Assembly (NCBI GenBank): GCA_035495795.1
Contig: DATJFF010000252.1
Location: 4,745 to 68,744 of the forward strand
Direction of reading: 5' to 3'
DNA length: 64,000 nucleotides
Origin: Vicinamibacterales bacterium
GTDB taxonomy: Bacteria > Acidobacteriota > Vicinamibacteria > Vicinamibacterales > UBA2999
The notes beneath the pieces are model-generated. The model did no database searches. It saw only the letters and a list, made by a program, of their open reading frames with translations, and was not told the origin of the DNA. Within the stretch, counting starts at the first letter, position 1. The number at the start of each line of letters is the position of its first letter. Shown here in pieces: positions 1 through 24,180 of this stretch. A program made the translations under genes and the position numbers.

Positions 1-188
1 GGCGCCACAGCGCGTCTCGCCGGGTTGCGCCCGCTGTTGACACCGGCCGCACGTCTGCGCTGCTCCTGCGGCCTCTAATGCGCTCACCGCCCCCTCCGAC
101 ACCCGGCCGTGGCATCATGGGCACAGTCATGGCGATCGGTTTGCGCTCGTCGCCGCCGCACCGCTGCCGCGCCGTTATGAGACGCACG

Positions 189-639: not shown

Positions 640-3324
640 GTGGCCCCCATGGCAAAGCAACCCCCGGCGCCGCTCGGACAGGCTACCACCATCGATCAGA
701 ATGGCCGTCGGCTTGGCAGCTACCGCACTCTATCGCTCCTCGGGCGAGGCGGAATGGGCGAAGTGTATCGTGCGCACGATGCCAGGCTCGGCCGTGACGT
801 CGCGATCAAGGTGCTTCCGGCGATCTTCGCAGAAGACGGGGAGCGGTTGGCGCGTTTCGAGAGCGAAGCGCGGATGCTTGCAGCCCTGAATCATCCTCAT
901 ATCGGTGCGATTTACGGCGTCGAGGATACCGACGGAACGCCCGCGCTCGTGCTGGAGCTTGTCGAGGGCGACACGTTGGCGGACCGGATGCGTGGCGGGC
1001 CGATACCGACGCGCGAGGCGTTGGCCATCGCGAGGCAGATCGCGGAGGCGCTCCATGCTGCGCATCGCAAGAGAATCATCCACCGAGACCTGAAGCCCTC
1101 CAACATCAAGATCACGCCAGATGGTGTGGTCAAGGTTCTCGACTTTGGCCTGGCGAAAGCGGTAGCGGAGCGTGAGGGCACCTCGACCGCGGCCGCAGCG
1201 CAGTCACCAACAACAGCGATCGATGCCACCCGTGTGGGGGTGATTCTCGGCACTGCGCCCTACATGAGCCCCGAGCAGGCGCGTGGGCTGCCAGTGGACA
1301 CACGCGCCGACATCTGGGCGTTCGGCTGCGTCCTGTACGAAATGCTTACGGGTCGCCCCCCCTTCAAGGGACAGACTGTCGCCGAGACGCTGGCCGCCAT
1401 TGTCGAGCGCGATCCAAATTGGAAGGCGTTGCCCGGTTCAACGCCGCCGCGTGTCCGGGAGCTGCTGCGCCGCTGTTTGCAGAAGGATATTGCCCTTCGT
1501 TTGGCCGATGTCGCGGAAGCACGCAACACGCTCGATCACGCGCTGCACGGGTGGAGCCGATCACGGGTCGCCGCAATCGCCGCGGCCGCGGCGGCCCTGC
1601 TCGTGTCGATCTCCGCGTGGACGTTGTTGCGTAGCGCCAGTGGCGACGGCCAAGCTATCGCGAGCACGGACTACGCGCAGGTCACGGACGTGACCGAGTC
1701 CGCTGTGGCCCCCATGTTGTCGCCCGACGGACGCATGGTCGCTTTCAAGGTCGGTGAGAACTACTTCCTTGGCGATGGGCAAATCTACGTCAAGCGTTTA
1801 CCAAGCGGTGAGTCGGTTCCGCTGACGCGCGGTCCGGGGAGCAAGTACGGTCCTGTCTTCACGCCTGACGGATCGCGCGTGGCGTATACGCAGCTCGTGC
1901 TGACCAACAGTGGTCTATCGTGGGACACGTTCACCGTGCCCGTCCTCGGCGGTGAACCGACCCCTTTGCTGGCCAACGCGTCAGGGCTCACGTTTCAGCC
2001 CAGTGGGCGCGTGCTCTTCGCAGAAATTCGCGGCGGACTGCATATGGGCATTGTCTCCGCTACCGAACGGCGTTCGGAGGCGCGCGATGTGTATTTCCCG
2101 CCGCACCAGCTCGGGATGGCGCACTTCGCACAGGCTTCACCGGATGGCAAGTGGATCCTCGTGGTGGAGATGGACCAAACGCACGCCTTTGGCCTGCCCT
2201 GTCGCCTGGTACCCGCGGACGGTGGCTCAACGGGGCGACAGGTTGGGCCGCTCGGCACCTGCACGTCTGCGGCCTGGTCAGCTGATGGGCGGTGGATGTA
2301 CTTCGGCGTCAATGTCAGCGGTCGGTCGCACCTCTGGCGCCAGCCGTTTCCCGACGGAGCGCCTGAGCAGATTACATTCGGTCCAACCGAAGAGGAAGGC
2401 GTAACGGTCGCGCCGGATGGGCACTCTCTGATTACCGCTCTCGGGATTCGTCGCAGCTCCATCTGGCTGCACAGCGCGAATGGTGAGCGGGCGATTGTGG
2501 CAGAAGGGTTTGCCCGGGCGCCGCGACTCTCGCGGGACGGCAGACGCGTTTTCTTCCTTCTTCGACCCGCGGCCGCTTCCGACACTTCGGAGCTGCGCGC
2601 GATCGATCTCGAAACGGGCGCCGTGCGGACCCTGGTTCCCGGGATCTCTGTTCTGGACTACGACATTTCAAGCGACGAGTCCGAGGTCGCCTTTACGACT
2701 CGGGAGGCCGGCGAACCCGACGTATGGATTGCCCCACTGGATCGACGAAGCCCGCCTCGGAGAATCGCGTCACGAGCTGATCAAGTGTCGTTCGGTTCTG
2801 GCGATGAACTGATCGTCCGCTCGATTGATGCTCCAGCGAACGCGATTCTGCGCATCAGCAAGGACGGAGCCCGACGGCAGCCGATCGACGCACCAGCGGT
2901 GCATGAGAAGGGTGAGGTGTCTCCCGACGGACGTTGGGTGATTGTCTACTCACCTGGATCGAGCGCAACGGAACCCGTGGCAACCTTCGCCGTGCCTGTC
3001 GCGGGTGGACCTGCGCGTCGGATCTGCCTGCCATATTGCGACGTGGGATGGTCAGCCGATGGCCGGTTTTTCAACATCGGCGTCGATCTCGATCTCGCAA
3101 CCGGCGCTCCGGGCCAGACGCTGGTGATTCCGCTCGCCGAGGCTTCGCCAGTGCCTGAGCTGCCGGGCCTGCACGCAATCTTCGAGTACGCGTCCTTGGC
3201 GAAGCAGCCCAGTGTGCGCACGCTCCTGCATGGCGGCGCATCGATCGGGTCGGATCCGACCACTTACGCATTTACGAGAGCAGAATTTCGCACCAACCTC
3301 GTTCAAATTCAACTACTGAGATAG
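640..3324 (+). CDS. serine/threonine protein kinase fused to TolB-like (PD40/WD40-like) beta-propeller repeats
   Basis: Hanks kinase motifs GRGGMGEVY, VAIK, HRDLKPSNI, DFGLAK, APYMSPEQ. One TM segment. C-terminal repeated SPDG/TPDG/APDG units. ATG at 649 is an alternative start. Confidence 0.9.
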   Translation: MAPMAKQPPAPLGQATTIDQNGRRLGSYRTLSLLGRGGMGEVYRAHDARLGRDVAIKVLPAIFAEDGERLARFESEARMLAALNHPHIGAIYGVEDTDGTPALVLELVEGDTLADRMRGGPIPTREALAIARQIAEALHAAHRKRIIHRDLKPSNIKITPDGVVKVLDFGLAKAVAEREGTSTAAAAQSPTTAIDATRVGVILGTAPYMSPEQARGLPVDTRADIWAFGCVLYEMLTGRPPFKGQTVAETLAAIVERDPNWKALPGSTPPRVRELLRRCLQKDIALRLADVAEARNTLDHALHGWSRSRVAAIAAAAAALLVSISAWTLLRSASGDGQAIASTDYAQVTDVTESAVAPMLSPDGRMVAFKVGENYFLGDGQIYVKRLPSGESVPLTRGPGSKYGPVFTPDGSRVAYTQLVLTNSGLSWDTFTVPVLGGEPTPLLANASGLTFQPSGRVLFAEIRGGLHMGIVSATERRSEARDVYFPPHQLGMAHFAQASPDGKWILVVEMDQTHAFGLPCRLVPADGGSTGRQVGPLGTCTSAAWSADGRWMYFGVNVSGRSHLWRQPFPDGAPEQITFGPTEEEGVTVAPDGHSLITALGIRRSSIWLHSANGERAIVAEGFARAPRLSRDGRRVFFLLRPAAASDTSELRAIDLETGAVRTLVPGISVLDYDISSDESEVAFTTREAGEPDVWIAPLDRRSPPRRIASRADQVSFGSGDELIVRSIDAPANAILRISKDGARRQPIDAPAVHEKGEVSPDGRWVIVYSPGSSATEPVATFAVPVAGGPARRICLPYCDVGWSADGRFFNIGVDLDLATGAPGQTLVIPLAEASPVPELPGLHAIFEYASLAKQPSVRTLLHGGASIGSDPTTYAFTRAEFRTNLVQIQLLR

Positions 3325-3441: not shown

Positions 3442-3780
3442 CTATCGCTTGACTGCCGCACTAAATGACACCGGCATAGCGGGATCTTTAATGCTGGCAA
3501 CCGCGGCGAGCAGATCGCTCACACTGCACTGTACAGCATCGTATTCAACCTGTGCCTCATGGCCCACCAGCGTCACCGTTGCTCGGGAGACGCCTTTGAC
3601 GCTGGCCAGTGCGGACCGCACTGGTTCGACGCAGCCTTCTCAAGTCATGCCTGCGATGAGGAGGGTGACCTTCGCCAGCGGTGGCCTGGTGCCGGAGGGC
3701 TCGGTCCCAACACGCCGGTGATGGGCGCAAGCTGGGACCGAGCAGATCGCGAGGAGCAACACAGCGCGCCTGGACGGCAT
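3442..3780 (-). CDS. secreted heavy-metal-associated (HMA) domain protein with in-frame TGA at 3640-3642 (candidate selenocysteine, motif GMT-U-EGC)
   Basis: Track ORF 3640..3885(-) ends ...KVTLLIAGMT at a TGA. The same frame continues EGCVEPVRSALASVKGVSRATVTLVGHEAQVEYD... to TAG 3442-3444, which completes an HMA fold. N-terminal signal-like MPSRRAVLLLAICSVPACA. Confidence 0.6.
3606..3624 (-). promoter_or_regulatory. SECIS-like hairpin downstream of the HMA TGA
   Basis: The mRNA reads CCAGUGC-GGUCC-GCACUGG, starting 15 nt after the UGA. The loop contains GGUC, as in the E. coli fdhF SECIS apical loop. Confidence 0.5.
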
Positions 3781-3835: not shown

Positions 3836-4720
3836 TCAATGCTGCTGCGGGTGTGGGTGTGGCGGTAATTCAGGACACGGCGCATTTTGAGCCGTGACGC
3901 AGAAATTTCGGTCGAACCGCGTCTGTCCGGCGGGAGCGAGATTGATGATGTCGAACGCCTGCGACCCCGGAGTGCTCGCAGTCTGAATCGCTGGATTCCC
4001 GATCGCGACGTTCTCCCGAATCAGGTTGTCGCGAGCGCCCGCCCCGATGTAGATGCCATTGGTATTGCCAGAGACGGTGTTCTGCTCGATGACGTTGCCG
4101 CTGGGCGTGCCGACCAGGCCGATCCCGAAATCATCGGCGGGAACGGCATAACCATTACCGTGCGCTGCGTTCAGCCGGACCCGGCTGTTGTGGCCCAAAA
4201 TTCATATGCCGCCGCAGAGCAACCCGGCCATCGACGAGCCGTTGCCCACCGCGATATTCCCCTGGACGATGGTGTCGAACGAGGTCGCGAGTACCCGAAC
4301 ACCAGACATACAGTTCATCGACAGCGTCACGTCCTCGATGCGCGTGTTTCTCGAGCCCGTGACTGTGATCCCATCTCCGCGAAATCTCTGGACCAAACCC
4401 GGCCCGCGGACCACGACACCGGACATGTTGGCGGTGGTGATACCTGCCTCGCCTGGTGTGGCAGCCCCACCGCAAGCCGTTACGGCATCACCGCGACCCG
4501 TGATCCTAAAACCATTCAGTCGCAATTCGACGTTGGGCGCGCCAAACGAGAAACACGGCGTTCCGGCTCCAACCTCGCACGTCACGTCGCCGACCAGTTC
4601 GGTGTCTTCGACGATGACAAATGTTCTTGTGAGTGTTCCGCTCACGCGGTCGTCGGCGAAGGCAGCCGACGCGACAAGGACGCTTCCGGCGAGCACCGCA
4701 ACCGCAACGATTGGACGCAT
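3836..4720 (-). CDS. secreted right-handed parallel beta-helix (PbH1/NosD-like) repeat protein with in-frame TGA at 4202-4204 (candidate selenocysteine)
   Basis: Track ORFs 4202..4726(-) and 3836..4198(-) are in the same frame and separated only by TGA + ATT. N.I..N..GN..GI-type repeats continue on both sides. Signal peptide MRPIVAVAVLAGSVLVASAAFA. The second ATG (4720) has better spacing from the AAGGAGG SD. His/Pro-rich tail PPHPHPQQH. Confidence 0.6.
4172..4187 (-). promoter_or_regulatory. SECIS-like hairpin downstream of the beta-helix TGA
   Basis: The mRNA reads CAGCCG-GGUC-CGGCUG, starting 14 nt after the UGA. 6-bp GC stem with a GGUC tetraloop. Confidence 0.5.
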
Positions 4721-4896
4721 GGACATGCCTCCTTTTCACGGTTCAGGGGACTACGGCGGGAAAACGGCGCGAGTATAGGCGAATTGCAGAGTTGCGTCTA
4801 GCCCCGCCCTCGCCTCCCGCTTTGGCCACTTGGTAGACCGGAAATGGCGGGTAGGAACTCGCCTATACTGCGGGTCGTCGCCGGGGAGCAACGCTG

Positions 4897-5484
4897 ATGG
4901 CATCAATCCGAGCAACGACCGTTTCCGCGATCGGCCGCTTCGCCTGGTCGGGCAGGAACATCGGCGTATTGATGCTCTTAGCTATCCTGCCACTGCACGC
5001 GGGCGGCATTCAGCCCCCTGCTCCTGACCCTTTCGCTCGCGTGAGTTTCCTGGTCGGTCGTTGGGAAGGAACCTCTGAGGGGCAGCCCGGCGCGGGGAAG
5101 GTCACCCGCGAGTACAGCCTAACGCTGAATCGAAAGTTCATCCGCGTACAGAACCGCAGCGAATACCCGGTCCAGGACAAGAACCCCAAGGGCGAAATTC
5201 ACCAGGACGAGGGTTTCATCAGCTTCGACCGTAGCCGAAAGAAGCTGGTGCTTCGACAATTTCACGTCGAAGGGTTCGTCAATCAATACGTGGAGGACGA
5301 TTCGTCGTTTCCAAGCCACATCGTTTTCACGACGGAATCGATCGAAAATATTCCAGCCGGCTGGCGGGCCCGGGAAACGTACGTCGTGCTTGGGCCGGAC
5401 GAGTTCGAGGAAGTCTTCGAACTGGCCGAGGACGGCAAGTCGTTCCAGCTCTATTCGCGAGCGCGGCTCAAGCGGATTCGCTGA
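4897..5484 (+). CDS. hypothetical secreted protein (lipocalin/DUF1579-like beta-barrel guess)
   Basis: Long ORF with hydrophobic N-terminus. The FLVGRWEGTSEG... pattern resembles small beta-barrel families, but the family is not certain. Confidence 0.55.
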   Translation: MASIRATTVSAIGRFAWSGRNIGVLMLLAILPLHAGGIQPPAPDPFARVSFLVGRWEGTSEGQPGAGKVTREYSLTLNRKFIRVQNRSEYPVQDKNPKGEIHQDEGFISFDRSRKKLVLRQFHVEGFVNQYVEDDSSFPSHIVFTTESIENIPAGWRARETYVVLGPDEFEEVFELAEDGKSFQLYSRARLKRIR

Positions 5485-5582: not shown

Positions 5583-6071
5583 ATGGTTGTCACACGGTGT
5601 CTCATCGGTGTCGTCGTCACGGCGCTCACCATCTCGCTTGCGTCGGCACAAGAGCATCACGCGTCAATGGACCAGCGAGGCGCCACGGTGATGGGGTTTG
5701 ACCAGGCGCTAACGACACATCAGTTCGTCCTCTTCACGGACGGCGGCGCCATCGATGTCAGCGTCAAGGGCACATCGGACACGAAGAATCGAGACGCGAT
5801 CCGTACACACCTCCCGCACATTGCCACGATGTTTGGTGACGGCAACTTCGATTCGCCGATGCTCGTTCACGACTCGACGAATGTGCCTGGCACTCGAACG
5901 ATGGCCGATCGCAAGTCGACGATTCGTTATCAGTACGTGGAGACGCCGGCGGGTGGCCGAGTTAATATCGTCACGACTGACCCGGATGCGTTGGCGGCAG
6001 TGCATGCCTTTCTTCGCTTCCAGATCGCGGATCATCATACGGGCGATTCCACAACAGTGCGAAAGAGATGA
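5583..6071 (+). CDS. hypothetical periplasmic protein (His-containing termini), co-transcribed with MerR regulator
   Basis: Signal peptide ...LTISLASA|QEHH. Its stop overlaps the start of the next gene (ATGA at 6068). Confidence 0.6.
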   Translation: MVVTRCLIGVVVTALTISLASAQEHHASMDQRGATVMGFDQALTTHQFVLFTDGGAIDVSVKGTSDTKNRDAIRTHLPHIATMFGDGNFDSPMLVHDSTNVPGTRTMADRKSTIRYQYVETPAGGRVNIVTTDPDALAAVHAFLRFQIADHHTGDSTTVRKR

Positions 6072-6556
6072 GCACTTCGCTGGGACCACGCGACGTGGCG
6101 GACGCAACCGGCGTCAGTACGGACACACTTCGGTATTACGAACGCAAAGGACTTCTGCCACCTCCCGCTCGCAGCTGTGCAGGCTATCGGCGGTATCCGC
6201 CCTCGGCTGTCGAGCGCGTGCTGTTGATCCAGCGTGCGCTCGTTGTCGGGTTCACACTTGGCGATCTGAAGCGAGTGCTGACGTTGCGAGACCGTGGCGG
6301 AGTACCGTGTCAAGGCGTCCGTGAATTGGTCGGCACCCGCCTGCAGCAGTTAAATGACCGCATCGATGAACTCACGGCGCTGCGGGAGGAATTGCAGCAG
6401 CTGTTAGCGGAATGGGACGATCGGCTCGCAGAGACACCGAGCGGGAAGCGGGCGCACCTCTTGGAGACACTGGGTTCAAAACCCCTGATCGAGACCGCCC
6501 GCCACCGTCGTCGTGCTGTGAAGCGGAACGTCTATCGCGAACGGTCGACGCGATAG
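6068..6556 (+). CDS. MerR family transcriptional regulator
   Basis: N-terminal HTH: VADATGVSTDTLRYYERKGLLPPPARSCAGYRRY. Followed by a coiled-coil dimerisation helix. Confidence 0.85.
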   Translation: MSTSLGPRDVADATGVSTDTLRYYERKGLLPPPARSCAGYRRYPPSAVERVLLIQRALVVGFTLGDLKRVLTLRDRGGVPCQGVRELVGTRLQQLNDRIDELTALREELQQLLAEWDDRLAETPSGKRAHLLETLGSKPLIETARHRRRAVKRNVYRERSTR

Positions 6557-6589
6557 CGCGGCCCATCGAGTGATCCAGCTCAACACCCA

Positions 6590-6870
6590 CCGCCTAGCCG
6601 TGGAATGGGACGTGATCGAGCGCATGCGGTGTGGAATGGGCAGACGTGGATTTCGTGAAAGGGCAACTCTGCGTACAGGGGTCCGACTGGCAGGGCACGT
6701 CACCAGCCCGAAGGGCAGCCGGCTCCGCTAACGTCCCGTTGACGCTTACACCTCAGTCCCGCGGCCACCGTAAACGCGATTCGGCTGCTCGACGATCGTC
6801 AAACGACCGGAGATTTTGGAGACATGTTGGAGACGGGGGAGAGCCGATCCAGAAGTGCAATCGGCTCAAT
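6590..6870 (+). pseudogene. decayed tyrosine recombinase/integrase fragment
   Basis: Pieces in different frames: VEWADVDFVKGQL, GHVTSPKGSRLR-stop, VPLT, and a C-terminal-like ...EILET. Interrupted by stops and frameshifts. Lies next to the att-like repeat. Confidence 0.45.
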
Positions 6871-6875
6871 CAGTT

Positions 6876-6899
6876 AGGTGGTGGAGGCGGCGGGAGTTG
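6876..6899. repeat. 24-bp direct copy of the tmRNA 3' end (att-like site)
   Basis: AGGTGGTGGAGGCGGCGGGAGTTG is identical to 6968-6991. Confidence 0.85.
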
Positions 6900-6967
6900 T
6901 ACTGCCTGGCGGCGGAGCCGCCGGCTGATCTAGACGACTGCCGACGAACACGACCTGAGCGAAGCGA

Positions 6968-6991
6968 AGGTGGTGGAGGCGGCGGGAGTTG
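6968..6991. repeat. 24-bp partner copy; most of it (6971-6991) is the tmRNA 3' end itself
   Basis: Identical 24-mer. Covers the acceptor/T-arm end of ssrA. Confidence 0.85.
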
Positions 6992-7326
6992 AACCCGCGT
7001 CCGAGAAAACGTCGTCGCAGACCGCTACGTGCGTGTCCCCATTCTGATGTCGCGACCGGTTGAGAACGAGGCCAACATCCCCGGCCGCCATCCCCGAACA
7101 ATCTCATCGTCCCGAGTCGAGGCAGCTCGTGACGACCAGCCCGCTTGATGACGGTCATCCCCGTGCCGCAGGCACTCACGGGGCGACCGCTCACTGGTTA
7201 TTAAGCAGCGAGAGCGTAGTCTGCGTTCGCAGTTACGTTGTGTTCCACCGCAGATTTACGAGGTGAGATGGAGTACTCGGCACGCGCTCCACGATCCCGC
7301 ATCCCCGTCGAAGCCAGGTCGCCCCC
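6971..7326 (-). ncRNA. ssrA: tmRNA (transfer-messenger RNA)
   Basis: 5' GGGGGCGACCUGGCUUCGACGGGGAU... and 3' ...GGACGCGGGUUCAACUCCCGCCGCCUCCACCA. G3:U wobble in the acceptor stem. Tag reading frame GCG AAC GCA GAC TAC GCT CTC GCT GCT TAA TAA = ANADYALAA. Confidence 0.92.
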
Positions 7327-7352
7327 ACGTGGTCAGTCGTTGACGCTCCTTG

Positions 7353-7361
7353 ATTGTACCA
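7353..7361 (-). promoter_or_regulatory. extended -10 box TGGTACAAT upstream of ssrA
   Basis: Reverse complement of ATTGTACCA. Lies 26 nt upstream of the mature tmRNA 5' end. Confidence 0.5.
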
Positions 7362-7691
7362 CTGCACCCGACCTCGACCGTGGGTGCCCGGTTCTGCCTG
7401 TTCCCGCGAACCGCACCGGCGGGGCGGGTCACGGTTCGGCGCAACGCTGCCCGCGGTCTCCACCCGGAGGTGTCGGTCAGATGGGTGAGCGCCGATACAT
7501 GGATGCGAGGAATTTCGGACGAGGTTCGGGAGCGCTCGGCAGTCGTGACGCGCGTGCCGTTACACGTGGCTGCGTGTCTTGACTTGAACGATCCGCTGCC
7601 CCGATAATTGTGAAGCTCGTACGGACGCACGCGCTCCCAGCCGCGGCCCGAGTCCTCTGAGGCTGTACAACCTTTTTCAGAGAGAGACATC

Positions 7692-8708
7692 GTGCTCGAA
7701 GACCGCATCCGTACGTCCGTGGACCAGGCCGTCCAGGCGCTGGTATCGGATCTGCTGTCCATCCACACCGACGCAACTGCCCGTCAGCTCGACGAGGCTG
7801 CGGAACGCCTCCGCGAAAGCGAGCGGGGCCGCGCCGAGCTGGAACAGAAACTCGCCGAGGCCGACGGGGCACGCGAAGCTGCCATCGACGAAGCGGTGCG
7901 TGCCGCGGTCGAGGGGGAGGCCGTGCGGCATGCGGCGCGCGTCGAAGACCAGATCCGAGCCTTGCATGAGCAGCATGCCGCGGCCATTGCGGCAATCCAG
8001 GGCGAGGCGGCGCGCCATACGGCTCAGGCCGGTGAGCAGATGCGTACCTTGCACGATGAGCACACCGCCGCCCTTGCCGCTGTCGAAGCCCGAGCCATAG
8101 CCGAGACGAAGGCGTCGATCGATGCCGCCCGGGTCGGCGAACGCGAGGCGGAGATGGCTGGCTTCACGCGTCTGGTCGAGAGCGTCCGTGGGCTCGACGG
8201 CGCAACATCGCTCAGCGAGGTGCTCGACGCGCTGGCGCTGGCCGCGGCGCGGGAAGCGGCTCGAGCCGCCGTCGTGGTGGTGAAAGGCGACCACATCGTG
8301 GGGTGGCGGCTGTCGGGTTTCGGCGCGCGAGACGCCCAACCGAAATCCGTCGATCTGCCGCTGGTCGAGGCTGGCGTGATCGGCGCGGCCGCCTCGTCGT
8401 CTCGCCCGGCAACGACCCAGAGCGGCGCGGACGGTCCCGGATTCGAGCATCTGCCCGAGGACCGGATGGGGCTGGCCATGCCCGTGCTGGTCGGCGGCCG
8501 GGTCGTGGCAGTCGTCTACGCCGACGGCGTGAGCGGCGGCGAGCAGGATCACATCGTGCCGAACCCGTGGCCCGAGGCGATCGAAGTGCTGGCCCGGCAC
8601 GCCGGCCGATGCCTCGAGGCCTTGACCGCCCAGAGAGTGGCGGCGCCGGCGCGGTCGAGTGCCCAGTCCGGAGTGGTAACCCCCGCCCCGTCCGGAGCCG
8701 TGGGATGA
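7692..8708 (+). CDS. hypothetical coiled-coil protein with GAF-like C-terminal half
   Basis: Long ORF with a tandem ~29-aa internal repeat (GEAVRHAARVEDQIRALHEQHAAAIAA / GEAARHTAQAGEQMRTLHDEHTAALAA). Its stop overlaps the slt start (ATGA). Confidence 0.55.
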   Translation: MLEDRIRTSVDQAVQALVSDLLSIHTDATARQLDEAAERLRESERGRAELEQKLAEADGAREAAIDEAVRAAVEGEAVRHAARVEDQIRALHEQHAAAIAAIQGEAARHTAQAGEQMRTLHDEHTAALAAVEARAIAETKASIDAARVGEREAEMAGFTRLVESVRGLDGATSLSEVLDALALAAAREAARAAVVVVKGDHIVGWRLSGFGARDAQPKSVDLPLVEAGVIGAAASSSRPATTQSGADGPGFEHLPEDRMGLAMPVLVGGRVVAVVYADGVSGGEQDHIVPNPWPEAIEVLARHAGRCLEALTAQRVAAPARSSAQSGVVTPAPSGAVG

Positions 8709-10879
8709 ACTGGCGCGCGGCAGTAGCCGCCGCGGCTGGAATCGTTGCCGGCGTGCTGCTCGCCGCACCGCGTCCGTCCGCCCAGACAATTGCCGTTTCC
8801 GCGAACGGCGCGCCGACCCCTCGCCTCGAGCCCACGGCGCACGCACCCGTTCCGTCAGACCTGAACGCGTTCTGGTTTGCGCCAGCCAGGGGCGCAACGC
8901 TGTCTCCCGCACTCACCGGGTTCGTGAAGGGCGTTCGATTGCTCGATGAGGAGAACAAGCCCGAGCTCGCACTGCCGCTCTTCAACCAGAAGGCGCTCGC
9001 CTCCACCTCGGTCGCGGAATACGCGCGGTTCTACACCGCGAAGGCCCAGCTGGCGCTCCACCGTTACGCCGAGGCGGAGGCCGCGTTTGCGGCGCTGGCC
9101 GGCAGCAACATCCAGGGGCATCTTCCCGAGGACGCGGCTCTCGGAGAAGCCGAATCCAAAGAGGCGCAGCTCGATTTCGCCGGCGCGGTGGCCGTGTACG
9201 AACGGCTGGTGCAGCGCAAGCTGGCCGCCCCGCAAGTCGCGCTCTGGCGTCTCGCGGTGGCCGCGCAGCGCAACGGCGATCAACCGAAAGCCGTCGCCGC
9301 GTATCGCCGGGTGTATTTCGAGTATCCCCTGTCCCCTGAGGCGAGCCAGTCCGAAGACGCGCTGACGAAGCTGAACGCCTGGAACGAGGACGAACCGGAC
9401 GTCGCGGTCGAACTGAAGCGGGCCGACGCCCTCTTCCAGGCGCGTCGGTGGAATGACGCCCGCGCGTCCTATGAGCGCGCTCGTCATGCCGCCAGCGGCG
9501 CGGAGCGCGATCGCGTCGACGTGCGGATGTCGGCGTGCGACGTTCAGATGAAGCGCTTCCGGCCGGCCCTCGAACCGCTGAAAGGGCAGCGGGCCGGCGC
9601 CTACGGTGAGGAAGCCGCGTTCTTCTACCTGAGCGCCCTGCGCGGCACGGGCGAAAAAGCGGACTACGAGCGCGAGGCCCGGATCTTCGCCGACAGCCAT
9701 CGTGAAAGCCCGTACGCCGAGGACGCGCTCAACAACCTCGCATCGCATTTTATCGTGGCCGACGAGGACGAACACGCCGAAGAGGTGTTCCGCCTCCTGC
9801 TCGAGCGTTATCCGGCCGGCCGCTTCGCCGAGCGGGCCTACTGGCGGGTTGGCTGGTGGGCGTACCGCGACGGTCAATTCCAGGAGGCGGCCACGCTGTT
9901 CGACCGTGGCGCGGCACAGTTCCCGCGATCCGACTATCGCCCCTCGTGGCTGTACTGGAGCGGCCGCGCCTGGCAGGGTGCCGGGCAGCGCGCGCTGGCC
10001 GACGAACGCCTCGTGCTCACCGCGACCGACTACTACAACAGCTATTACGGGCGACTCGCCCGCCAGCACCTGAGCGCCGGCCGCGTGCAGGCGATCGGCA
10101 CAGCCGTCACCCGCGCGGCGGCACCGGAAACCACGTCGTTCCCGACCGGGACGCGTGTCGCGGAACTGATTGCGGTCGGACTCCATCGGGAGGCCCTGAA
10201 CGAACTGCAATACGCGCAACGGATCTGGGGCGACTCGCCGCAGCTGACTGCGACGATCGCGCTCGTGCACAACCGGCTGGGCAACCTGCGGCTCGGGATC
10301 AACGCGATGAAGCGCGCGTATCCGCAGTGGATGGCAGCCGGCGGCGAGACGCTGCCGGTCGAGATTCAGCGGGTCGTTTTCCCGATCGACTACTGGCCGC
10401 TCATCCAGAAGCACGCCGCCGCCCACGGGCTGGACCCCTTTCTGATCGCGGCGCTCGTCGCCCAGGAATCGACGTTCGATCCCGTCATCCGCTCCTCGGC
10501 AAACGCGGTCGGGCTGATGCAGGTGCTGCCCTCGACCGGACGGCAGTTCGCCCGCAAAATGAAGATTCCGCGCTACACGCCGTCGCGCCTGACGGATCCG
10601 GAGACGAACGTCCGGCTCGGCACCGCCATCTTCGCGGACAGCATCAAGCGGTTCGGCGGGGTTCATTTCGCGCTGGCGGCCTACAACGCCGGTGATCATC
10701 GGGTAGCGGCGTGGCTGCGCGAACGTCAGGGGATGGACCAGGACGTTTTCATCGATGACATCCCATTCCCCGAAACGCAGAACTACGTGAGGCGGATCCT
10801 CGGGACGGCCGAAGACTACCGTCGCCTGTACGGGTCGACCGCGCAGAAGCCGCAACCGGCGCGGACCGAAGGGCGCTGA
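8705..10879 (+). CDS. slt: soluble lytic murein transglycosylase (Slt70-like, TPR/superhelical N-domain + SLT domain)
   Basis: Signal peptide MNWRAAVAAAAGIVAGVLLAAP. C-terminal SLT motifs ALVAQESTFDP, GLMQVLPSTG, AYNAG. The track ORF 8303.. has a spurious N-extension. Confidence 0.85.
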   Translation: MNWRAAVAAAAGIVAGVLLAAPRPSAQTIAVSANGAPTPRLEPTAHAPVPSDLNAFWFAPARGATLSPALTGFVKGVRLLDEENKPELALPLFNQKALASTSVAEYARFYTAKAQLALHRYAEAEAAFAALAGSNIQGHLPEDAALGEAESKEAQLDFAGAVAVYERLVQRKLAAPQVALWRLAVAAQRNGDQPKAVAAYRRVYFEYPLSPEASQSEDALTKLNAWNEDEPDVAVELKRADALFQARRWNDARASYERARHAASGAERDRVDVRMSACDVQMKRFRPALEPLKGQRAGAYGEEAAFFYLSALRGTGEKADYEREARIFADSHRESPYAEDALNNLASHFIVADEDEHAEEVFRLLLERYPAGRFAERAYWRVGWWAYRDGQFQEAATLFDRGAAQFPRSDYRPSWLYWSGRAWQGAGQRALADERLVLTATDYYNSYYGRLARQHLSAGRVQAIGTAVTRAAAPETTSFPTGTRVAELIAVGLHREALNELQYAQRIWGDSPQLTATIALVHNRLGNLRLGINAMKRAYPQWMAAGGETLPVEIQRVVFPIDYWPLIQKHAAAHGLDPFLIAALVAQESTFDPVIRSSANAVGLMQVLPSTGRQFARKMKIPRYTPSRLTDPETNVRLGTAIFADSIKRFGGVHFALAAYNAGDHRVAAWLRERQGMDQDVFIDDIPFPETQNYVRRILGTAEDYRRLYGSTAQKPQPARTEGR

Positions 10880-22970: not shown

Positions 22971-23987
22971 CTACGCTCGTGGCTCCCGGAAGTGCTCGAA
23001 GCCGGACGGCCAGGCGTGGGCCTCACCATTCCGGACCAGAACCAACTCCTTTTCGCGCGTGAGCGCGCCGATGCGCGTCAACGCCGGCCTCGTGACCCGT
23101 TGCACAACGTGCCTGAGGCGCCCACTCCATCGTCTCGGGATCGCGAGCAGCAGCTCGTAATCCTCACCCCCGGCGACCGCGGCGGACACGACGTCCTGTC
23201 CACGGCCGGCCCACCAGTCGCGCGCGCCAGCCTCCACCGGAACAGCCTCGGCGTCAACTCGCGCGCCGCACCCGCTGGCGTGTGCCAGCTGCCTCACCGC
23301 GTCGGCCAGGCCATCGCTCACATCCATCGCGGCGCGTGCCGCGCTCCCTCTTGCCAGTGCCACCCCGAGCCGCACGCGTGCCTCGGGACGTCGATGTCTC
23401 GAGAGGCAGGCGGCCAGGCCGGGAGATTTCGCTGCCACGTCTGCCTGGTCACGCAGCATCTCGAGTCCGGCACGCGCCCCTCCGACGGCGCCGCTCAGCC
23501 ACAGTTCGTCACCTGCTTTCCCACCGCTCCGCGTCAGCCATTTCCGAGGCGATACCTCGCCGCCGGCGGCCACGTCCACGACGAGCGGTCCAGGACTGCG
23601 GGTGATGTTGCCCCCGGCGACAGACACGCCATGCGCGGCGGCGAGTCCGGCCAGTCCGCTCATGAGCGCCTCGGCGGCATCCACCGGGTAGGTGGGGGGG
23701 AGTGCCAGCGAGACGAGTGCCCAGCGAGGAACGGCGCCCATCGCCGCCAGATCGCTGAGGTTGACGGCGAGCGCCTTGTGCCCGATGTCCGCCGGGCTGC
23801 TCCAGGCGGACGAGAAGTGCACGTCCTCGACGAGCGCGTCCGTGGTCAGGACCAGGCGAGTCCGGCGTCCCGGCTCGATCACCGCGGCGTCGTCACCCGG
23901 CCCGACCAGAATCTGGGCCCCCGGTCGGGGCAGACGCGCCAGCAGGCGCGCCAGCAGGGCGTGTTCGCCCAGATCCGAAACCGTCAC
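22971..23987 (-). CDS. thiL: thiamine-monophosphate kinase
   Basis: GDDAAV, TTDALVEDVHF, IGHKALAVNLSDLAAMGA, AIR-synthase-like fold pattern. GTG start. Confidence 0.85.
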   Translation of the reverse strand: MTVSDLGEHALLARLLARLPRPGAQILVGPGDDAAVIEPGRRTRLVLTTDALVEDVHFSSAWSSPADIGHKALAVNLSDLAAMGAVPRWALVSLALPPTYPVDAAEALMSGLAGLAAAHGVSVAGGNITRSPGPLVVDVAAGGEVSPRKWLTRSGGKAGDELWLSGAVGGARAGLEMLRDQADVAAKSPGLAACLSRHRRPEARVRLGVALARGSAARAAMDVSDGLADAVRQLAHASGCGARVDAEAVPVEAGARDWWAGRGQDVVSAAVAGGEDYELLLAIPRRWSGRLRHVVQRVTRPALTRIGALTREKELVLVRNGEAHAWPSGFEHFREPRA

Positions 23988-23989
23988 AA

Positions 23990-24180
23990 AAGAGAACGTC
24001 CCGCGTTGCCGTGTGGGGAGGATTGCTGAACCTGCATAAGCAGGTGGAGCCGCTGTAAGAGCCGCGCTTCAGGCTTCCTCTACCACGGAGGCATGCACAC
24101 CACGCGGCCGTCGCAACTCGCTTGGGTTTTACGTTGGCTCAGACAAGCCTCCGAAACCATCACGAACAACGCAGGACTGC
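23990..24180 (-). ncRNA. ssrS: candidate 6S RNA
   Basis: Non-coding gap between zapA and thiL. TGGTACAAT extended -10 box. 5' CCUGCGUUG pairs with 3' CAACGCGGG and continues as an interrupted closing stem (CGUG/CACG, UGG/CCA, GGAGG/CCUCC, UUG/CAA, CUGA/UCAG). A-rich unpaired strand AACGUAAAACCCAAG. Small hairpin CCUGC-UUAU-GCAGG. U-rich tail. Ends are +/-10 nt. Confidence 0.4.

Follow-up and report, generated by a model that had tools for sequence, protein, structure and literature searches.

A candidate selenoprotein family with a beta-helix fold in soil Acidobacteriota

Introduction

Bacterial selenoproteins whose selenocysteine insertion sequence (SECIS) lies inside the open reading frame, with E. 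coli fdhF as the prototype, and the families described by Zhang & Gladyshev, by Haft and in PMC13188914 have three traits in common: an in-frame UGA, homologues with cysteine in its place, and a stem-loop 3' of the UGA with G in its loop. The feature shared by bacterial SECIS elements is a small G-containing apical loop located just 3' of the UGA (PMC1088965). In known families that alternate between selenocysteine (Sec) and cysteine, carrier genomes encode SelB and tRNA-Sec, and the two forms are scattered over the family tree. Here we describe a gene whose family shows the same traits, from a 64,000-nucleotide stretch of the genome of a Vicinamibacterales bacterium (contig DATJFF010000252.1; the whole stretch is hereafter called the window). 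The gene occupies positions 3836..4726 on the minus strand and is interrupted by a single in-frame UGA.

We consider it very probable, judging from the sequence comparisons set out below, that 3836..4726(-) encodes a single secreted beta-helix protein, about 270 residues long when mature, and that the UGA at its codon 175 specifies selenocysteine. A first-pass annotation of the window had put the gene forward as a candidate selenoprotein, a proposal that now has strong support from the conservation of the UGA, its alternation with Cys, the hairpin that follows it and the presence of Sec machinery in carrier genomes.

Results

One reading frame with a conserved internal UGA

Reading of the minus strand confirms that the two annotated open reading frames, 4202..4726(-) and 3836..4198(-), share one frame, as originally proposed, and that they are split only by TGA 4202-4204 plus one codon (...SSMAGLLCGGI-*-ILGHNSRVRLNAAHGNGY). 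Together they make a coding sequence of 296 codons, including the one internal UGA, that ends at a true stop (TGA) at 3836-3838. When the internal stop is replaced by Cys, matches to Pfam Beta_helix (PF13229, residues 115-248, 39 bits) and NosD (PF05048, 43 bits) span the TGA site, and the two frames are therefore halves of one repeat domain. The earlier argument that PbH1-type repeats on both sides of the UGA mark a single gene is borne out by these matches and by full-length Cys homologues that are collinear with the window protein. Ribosome-binding-site spacing and homologues beginning MRPIV... suggest that the second ATG, at 4720, is a likelier start than the ATG at 4726. Residues 1-24 (4655..4726(-); MSMRPIVAVAVLAGSVLVASAAFA|DD, that is, ...SAAFA|DD) form a predicted signal peptide of the Sec export type, read by eye from the sequence, and a hydrophobic N-terminus is kept in all homologues.

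A protein search across about 5.8 billion proteins yielded, among the best 120 matches, two populations: full-length proteins of 290-300 aa and about 70 short ones, of 170-177 aa, that cover the N-terminal 58-59% of the query. Every short homologue ends, in the alignment, exactly at ...CGGI. Scanning of genomes, one for each GTDB species, identified 46 loci with a homologue, nearly all from Acidobacteriota (Vicinamibacterales, Bryobacterales, Terriglobia) with one from Gemmatimonadaceae, and a metagenome scan contributed 80 further loci, mostly from JGI samples. At all 46 of the 46 species-representative loci, whose proteins are 40-70% identical, TGA occupies the identical codon (4202..4204(-) in the window, residue 175) and the beta-helix continues in frame; one locus, L032, is rearranged further downstream, after HNSRV. 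JGI metagenomes hold at least 491 related stretches.

Rather than ending at this position, homologues keep the TGA and read on, with Cys in those where a sense codon occupies the site. Past the UGA, the median length of open frame is 123 codons. TGA is also the commonest true terminator of these genes (56 of 104, against 37 TAG and 11 TAA) and UGA therefore retains its stop meaning in these organisms. At many loci the first ATG, GTG or TTG past the UGA is 29-70 codons away, although the stretch before it codes for conserved protein (HNSRVRLN..GNGY), which argues against a separate downstream gene.

Alternation with cysteine

The first-pass annotation had called for homologues to be searched for Cys or UGA at the aligned position, and both are found: across the 121 loci at which the site could be resolved, it is TGA in 111 and TGC in 8, with both Cys171 and residue 175 lost in the remaining 2, and among 47 full-length proteins 33 have Cys. 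Considering positions 171 and 175 jointly, these 47 proteins divide into C/C (33), A, R or G combined with S or T (8), C/W (3), C/E (2) and C/G (1). Cys171 (codon TGC, 4214..4216(-)) thus co-varies with residue 175, in that it accompanies C or U there or is lost together with it; the sole exception among the genome loci is L018 (TGA at 6445), where the UGA is kept and Cys171 has become Gly (GGGI-U). For the 'W' protein P0003 (locus L048), the DNA has TGA at the site, and the stored gene call differs from the table-11 translation. The three Cys forms that we examined as DNA have TGC at the site, with ATC replacing ATA at the codon before it. Six further cysteines (50, 58, 85, 139, 276 and 284) are invariant or nearly so in full-length homologues.

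One JGI protein, P0001 (272 aa, 70% identical to the window protein), lacks a single rung, precisely the one (about 24 residues) that holds C-G-G-I-U (...SFGTI|IGHNSRVRLN...). This may be either an in-frame deletion of the Sec rung or an artefact of assembly or gene calling.

Constraint on the RNA downstream of the UGA

The hairpin CAGCCG-GGUC-CGGCUG is found where it had been reported, at 4172-4187 in plus-strand coordinates (4172..4187(-)), starting 14 nt 3' of the UGA and with its loop at +24..27. The loop of the E. coli fdhF SECIS is also GGUC. Since measures of folding stability are uninformative in G+C-rich DNA, we used a stem-specific test and a synonymous-site test instead. Among 93 unique Sec forms, 46% have, at 16-37 nt, a hairpin with an unbroken stem of 6 bp or more and a loop that contains G; for other in-frame positions of these genes (19,303 in all), the share is 3.2%. 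For the synonymous-site test, 45 genome sequences were back-translated to a codon alignment and scored in segments of eight codons. Around the UGA, the three segments from -8 to +16 codons have synonymous codon identities of 0.72, 0.64 and 0.78; other well-sampled segments range from 0.33 to 0.64, the maximum for the gene falling at the hairpin, where the codons of Arg+9 (CGG) and Val+10 (GUC) are the same in every comparable pair. Constraint extends to the Ile174 codon directly 5' of the UGA (AUA, 4205..4207(-)), which is ATA in 109 of 111 Sec forms versus 3 of 10 non-Sec forms, the latter using ATC, ATT or ATA. ATA is a minority Ile codon in the family's coding sequences (94 of 847 Ile codons, many of them contributed by this very site).

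Three groups of hairpin can be distinguished. Group 1, which includes the window, has a 6-bp stem with a GGUC loop at +24..27, and for 27 of its sequences RNAalifold predicts 6 pairs. At the base of the stem, 20 sequences have C-G and 7 have U-A, none is half-changed, and both substitutions are synonymous; on a neighbour-joining tree, the U-A pair appears in at least 3 places. Homologues thus do have the hairpin, the absence of which had been named as grounds for abandoning the proposal, and they conserve it with a compensatory change from C-G to U-A. In group 2 (CUCG(U/C)UCC-GGU-GGAACGAG) an 8-position stem with seven invariant pairs carries a GGU loop. A SECIS-type stem-loop is found, then, in the window and the rest of group 1 and in group 2. 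Group 3, the Bryobacterales type, has the AGCCG/CGGCU stem of group 1, a CAAC or UAAC loop and, in addition, an invariant AACCGGCUCCGUGCGAACCGG, and its structure is ambiguous. In the distant non-Sec forms, which have Cys, Ser or Thr at the site (L050, which reads AGGIS; L051 and L116, both Cys; L052, L100 and L114), the hairpin is degraded, partly by synonymous changes.

Selenocysteine machinery

Genes for tRNA-Sec, called by ARAGORN and confirmed by Rfam RF01852 (gathering score 47), lie at 8383-8474 (-) in L031 (71.5 bits) and at 7628-7718 in L044 (73.3 bits), the latter about 1 kb 3' of the beta-helix gene. L031 further encodes SelB at 8609-10540 (+), with GTP_EFTU, Beta-barrel_SelB, SelB-wing_2 and SelB-wing_3 domains. 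All three genes are located within 2 kb of a beta-helix gene in its UGA form, and carrier genomes such as these therefore probably decode Sec. The first-pass annotation had singled out an absence of Sec machinery as decisive against its proposal; the tRNA-Sec genes of L031 and L044 and the SelB of L031 are the counter-examples.

Weighing the alternatives

Several observations weigh against reading the UGA as selenocysteine. In a single window sequence, the hairpin is weak evidence: with a G+C content of 67%, the window contains 1538 TGA trinucleotides, and for 70 of them (4.5%) a hairpin with six perfect base pairs and a G in its loop lies 16-37 nt downstream, while a 76-nt fold around the UGA is no more stable than shuffled sequence (z = -0.16). 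The earlier contention that two adjacent genes, each with one UGA and a similar loop, are hard to explain by chance thus has weak backing from the single sequence, and the case is for that reason made by comparison with relatives (131 related loci). Mean folding energy at +9..+57 does not separate Sec forms (-12.9 kcal/mol) from non-Sec forms (-14.0). The best hairpin in group 3, AGCCG-CAAC-CGGCU, has no G in its loop. Nor is the hairpin exclusive to Sec forms, being intact in three close Cys forms (L047, L049 and L059), two of which have also switched from ATA to ATC; retention in close Cys forms and loss in distant ones fits what would be expected from recent, repeated conversion of Sec to Cys. 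Finally, there is no selA, selB, selC or selD among the scanned open reading frames of the 64-kb window, and we infer the Sec competence of the window organism from its relatives. An ARAGORN tRNA-SeC call at 9355-9446(-) is a false positive, lying antisense inside an SLT/TPR gene (8303-10879) with no Rfam tRNA-Sec match there even at E <= 10. A candidate for SelD, the AIRS-domain protein at 22974-23987, is ThiL (TIGR01379, 298 bits), and the window frames of SelA, SelB or SelD length encode DnaK (Hsp70), exonuclease VII, YceG, an amidase, CstA and ThiL, none of them a sel product.

Could the UGA simply be what gene callers take it to be? In that case, the product would have 174 residues, and the downstream part would be a separate gene or untranslated. 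Public records look this way, given that about 70 of the best 120 matches stop at 170-177 aa and that GenBank lists HYU78889.1 as a 'hypothetical protein' of 173 aa, and UGA is a normal terminator in these genomes. A genuine stop here would nonetheless cut the protein in the middle of a beta-helix repeat domain, when 120 downstream residues are kept in frame in all loci, often behind those 29-70 codons devoid of a start, and when the Cys forms are collinear single proteins. It would also leave the hairpin, the synonymous-site constraint and the fixed rare AUA unexplained, and we regard it as extremely unlikely. Readthrough of the UGA independent of selenium, either by a near-cognate tRNA (Trp, Cys or Arg) or through local or lineage-specific reassignment to Trp or Gly, is another reading, leaky UGA contexts being known from bacteria, some JGI calls showing W and one database protein G. 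Yet the 'W' that was examined as DNA is a TGA translated with another table, and reassignment sits badly with the 56 of 104 family genes that end in UGA. Where a sense codon takes the place of the UGA, it nearly always specifies Cys and is accompanied by a second, co-varying Cys four residues before it, a signature of Sec and not of Trp or Gly; the UGA is followed by a SECIS-like hairpin at the canonical distance; and selC lies next to the gene in L031 and L044, as does selB in L031. We therefore judge readthrough very unlikely. As for a pseudogene, or an error of sequencing or assembly in the window, a single in-frame stop is typical of recent decay, L032 is rearranged after HNSRV, and P0016 (L049) has a garbled C-terminus, but TGA recurs at this very codon in 111 independent loci, which come from many species and samples and were put together by many assemblers; this refutes the idea and leaves it next to no probability.

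Fold of the protein

An AlphaFold2 model of the Cys-form homologue P0002, which is 62% identical to the window protein, is a right-handed beta-helix (pLDDT 85, pTM 0.82). On this model, the window protein is a right-handed parallel beta-helix of PbH1 repeats. Foldseek matches to the model are confined to generic beta-helix enzymes (phage tailspikes, AlgE epimerases, pectate and alginate lyases) at E of about 1e-4 and 10-15% identity, and neither these nor profile searches of the PDB give a specific function. The register of the repeats (G-I-x-[VIL] at 119, 142, 173, 201 and 224) would put Sec175 at the outward-facing third position of a rung and Cys171 in the preceding turn.

The first-pass annotation had called the protein NosD-like. 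This holds to the extent that the PbH1 repeats are shared (PF05048), and it does not extend to orthology: TIGR04247 gives 25.7 bits against a cut-off of 300, the PDB profile match to NosD has E = 0.064, and NosD is absent from the top 50 Foldseek matches. We saw no nosF, nosY or nosZ nearby, the scanned neighbours in the window being kinase, HMA, THAP4-like, MerR and SLT/TPR genes, and clustering of neighbours across loci, where only some clusters are annotated, revealed no ABC partner.

Neighbouring genes and further candidate selenoproteins

Immediately downstream of the beta-helix gene lies a lipoprotein-like gene with an HMA domain (3442..3780(-), in a reading frame that extends to 3885), which has an in-frame UGA of its own at 3640-3642 (...VTLLIAGMT-[TGA]-EGCVEPVRSALASVKGV). 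Here, U would replace the first Cys of the GMTCxxC metal site (GMT-U-EGC). An 8-bp hairpin with a GUC loop, CCAGUGCG-GUC-CGCACUGG, follows at 3606-3624, and the sequence confirms that this gene's GGUC is at +26..29, a spacing nearly equal to that in the beta-helix gene. Translation probably starts at M36 (nt 3780), judging from a lipoprotein-like signal (LLLAICSVPAC), and the two genes are probably co-transcribed. The best NCBIfam matches of the HMA protein are NF041115 metal-binding (seleno)protein, CopZ and MerP, all under their cut-offs. When we scanned the window for recoded UGAs, requiring 40 or more flanking codons as well as a hairpin and a Cys close to the TGA, only the sites at 4204 and 3642 were credible; three other matches look like gene boundaries.

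Adjacency to an HMA gene of the window type is not a universal feature of the family. This type recurs only in L001, with HMA UxxC next to the beta-helix gene in both cases. The broader link is to a pair of genes, one MerT-like and the other, adjacent to it, HMA-like, found beside the beta-helix gene in 13 loci from two subfamilies; in 12 of them, the HMA-like gene has an in-frame TGA (UxxC). Three more loci (L011, L013 and L030) have a Cys-form HMA gene beside the beta-helix gene (GVGCADC, GLSCDTC). An association of HMA/MerT type is seen in about 18 of 47 genome loci, window included. In loci of the L003 type, the beta-helix gene heads a tight same-strand cluster with NifU-like, SaoD/DsrE-family (NF040913, 167.6 bits versus a cut-off of 152), MerT-like and HMA-like genes. 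The MerT-like gene of L003 (7651-7970 (+); Pfam MerT at E = 2e-5, under the gathering cut-off) has two consecutive TGAs at the position of the MerT CC (...AALLVPS-UU-LLPQVLAGLG), and the same UU gene is present in L004-6, L009, L014-16, L019, L032, L037, L038 and L044. A 7-bp hairpin, CAAGUCC-UGGCA-GGACUUG, read by eye, follows. MerT-family selenoproteins exist, and relatives of SaoD outside the SAO system usually adjoin components of metal import (bioRxiv 10.1101/2022.07.06.499078). Described MerT selenoproteins have CU or C/SxxU, and the UU pair therefore looks new. At the same loci, the HMA-like lipoprotein gene (7952-8464 (+) in L003) overlaps the end of the MerT-like gene and reads ...HVRGIT-[TGA]-PTC-AAAMEVALRRRLDGV, again UxxC.

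A different partner is found in eight group-2 loci (L021, L022, L025-L028, L031 and L043), where a gene about 650-1050 nt 3' of the beta-helix UGA has a conserved in-frame TGA of its own (...K(V/I)RIVLLLSPT-U-P(A/G/Y)C..AARWAQ) and a secreted product of about 190 aa. This SPT-U-PxC protein has no Pfam or NCBIfam match. To the eye it looks thioredoxin-like, with UxxC following a predicted beta-strand, and it is apparently a second undescribed family of candidate selenoproteins. Neither it nor the UU MerT-like protein matches a curated selenoprotein model. In L031, positions 6001-10540 constitute what might be called a selenium island, comprising the beta-helix gene (U), the SPT-U-PAC gene, a DUF169 gene (7564-8274), tRNA-Sec (-) and SelB (+).

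Other genes near the beta-helix gene deserve mention in their own right. Its neighbour in the window, in convergent orientation, is the gene at 640-3324 (+) for a Ser/Thr protein kinase (about 890 aa) that has PD40/beta-propeller repeats, and such a kinase occurs in 22 of the first 52 related loci (for example L003-6, L009, L014, L015, L018, L019 and L026), usually divergent and starting about 350 nt upstream. This adjacency could point to a functional link or to the abundance of such kinases in Acidobacteriota. Two overlapping genes at 5583-6556 (+) lie 0.9-1.3 kb from the selenoprotein pair. The first encodes a secreted protein of 162 aa that matches no family, and it shares 4 nt with the start of the gene for a MerR-family regulator, whose best matches are MerR, CadR, ZntR and CueR, all below cut-offs. 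The promoter region of the beta-helix gene (4700-4920) contains no inverted repeat of the MerR operator type. With regard to RNA genes of the window, a permuted tmRNA call by ARAGORN at 6281-7066 has no support from Rfam, and the genes for tmRNA (6971-7326) and 6S RNA (23994-24180) are genuine.

Discussion

How might this UGA be decoded, and what might the resulting protein do? By analogy with the established bacterial pathway, SelB carrying GTP and Sec-tRNASec would bind the hairpin 14 nt downstream and insert Sec in competition with release factor 2, a competition that is probably tuned by the near-invariant AUA in the P-site. The protein would then be exported, with its six invariant cysteines probably forming three structural disulfides and with a selenol/thiol pair, Cys171-Gly-Gly-Ile-Sec175, displayed at the start of one rung of the beta-helix. 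This pair may bind or relay a metal or metalloid of the thiophilic kind, such as Hg or Cu, or may be a redox-active selenylsulfide. Its partners would be other exported or membrane selenoproteins: the HMA lipoprotein with UxxC, the MerT-like protein with UU and, in one subfamily, the secreted SPT-U-PxC protein.

We suggest tentatively, and with a little less than even confidence, that the protein provides a periplasmic selenol/thiol site for the handling of soft metals or metalloids or for thiol/selenol redox exchange. A more specific scenario, which we find conceivable and somewhat doubtful, is that the beta-helix C-x3-U protein is the periplasmic member of an unrecognised multi-selenoprotein relay in soil Acidobacteriota, made up of HMA UxxC, MerT-like UU and cytoplasmic SaoD/DsrE-like and NifU-like acceptors (with the secreted SPT-U-PxC partner instead in one subfamily). 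Ligand exchange from selenol to selenol would allow such a relay either to detoxify a thiophilic metal or metalloid (Hg, Cu and selenium itself being possible substrates) or to capture it and bring it into the cell. Two considerations speak against these functional proposals. In a DSSP trace of the P0002 model, the Cys and Sec positions are i and i+4 of one strand and, if that strand is regular, residues 171 and 175 would be too distant from each other for a direct selenylsulfide or a bidentate site. Moreover, gene neighbours vary by subfamily.

That no beta-helix selenoprotein family had been described, as the first-pass annotation supposed, holds for NCBIfam, for the inventory and for the literature as searched in full text. 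In NCBIfam release 20 (June 2026), the window protein matches only the TIGR03804 repeat and, below threshold, NosD, and no curated selenoprotein model covers the family; the 2026 inventory of 119 prokaryotic selenoprotein families and subfamilies (PMC13188914, Table 1) has no beta-helix or NosD entry; the deep-Sep and BSepDB papers mention no beta-helix selenoprotein; and a full-text literature search found no description of one. The family thus appears to be undescribed, while the mechanism itself would be ordinary bacterial Sec insertion.

If the relay reading is true, the protein would be the first among selenoproteins to have a beta-helix fold. Selenoproteins are systematically mis-annotated since UGA is read as a stop, and the new family is cut in half in public records even though it is common in soil, with 46 species-level genomes of Acidobacteriota and Gemmatimonadota. 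It would add a beta-helix fold, a C-x3-U motif and an extracytoplasmic location to the prokaryotic selenoproteome and would show that abundant soil Acidobacteriota use Sec beyond the usual redox enzymes. Its neighbours point to selenium-dependent handling of soft metals, which would bear on the cycling of mercury, copper and selenium in soils. On the practical side, annotators would gain a new model, and the signature of AUA, UGA and hairpin could improve the prediction of Sec sites in high-G+C genomes.

Compared with known systems, the family combines familiar elements in an unfamiliar way. NosD, a periplasmic component of the NosDFY machinery that acts in the maturation of N2O reductase (PDB 7o0y), is likewise a beta-helix of PbH1 repeats. 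It differs in having no Sec/Cys pair. NosD is encoded beside the lipoprotein copper chaperone NosL, and in a similar manner the gene described here adjoins a lipoprotein-like gene with a metallochaperone domain. With the mer-type Hg(II) relay, in which MerP (CxxC) is followed by MerT (CC), the family shares MerT-like and HMA/MerP-like proteins among its neighbours, with Sec in place of metal-ligand Cys, and in the window also a MerR-family regulator at a distance of 1.3 kb; it differs in that we identified no MerA or MerB and in that all matches to mer models are far under cut-offs. With the SAO selenoprotein system of Haft (bioRxiv 10.1101/2022.07.06.499078), it shares a SaoD/DsrE-family protein. 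Neither the mer nor the SAO system has a beta-helix component. The listed selenoprotein families, finally, mostly carry UxxC, CxxU or CU, whereas the members of this family would be exported proteins with C-x3-U, hosted by soil Acidobacteriota, in which a right-handed parallel beta-helix stands in place of a thioredoxin-like or molybdopterin fold.

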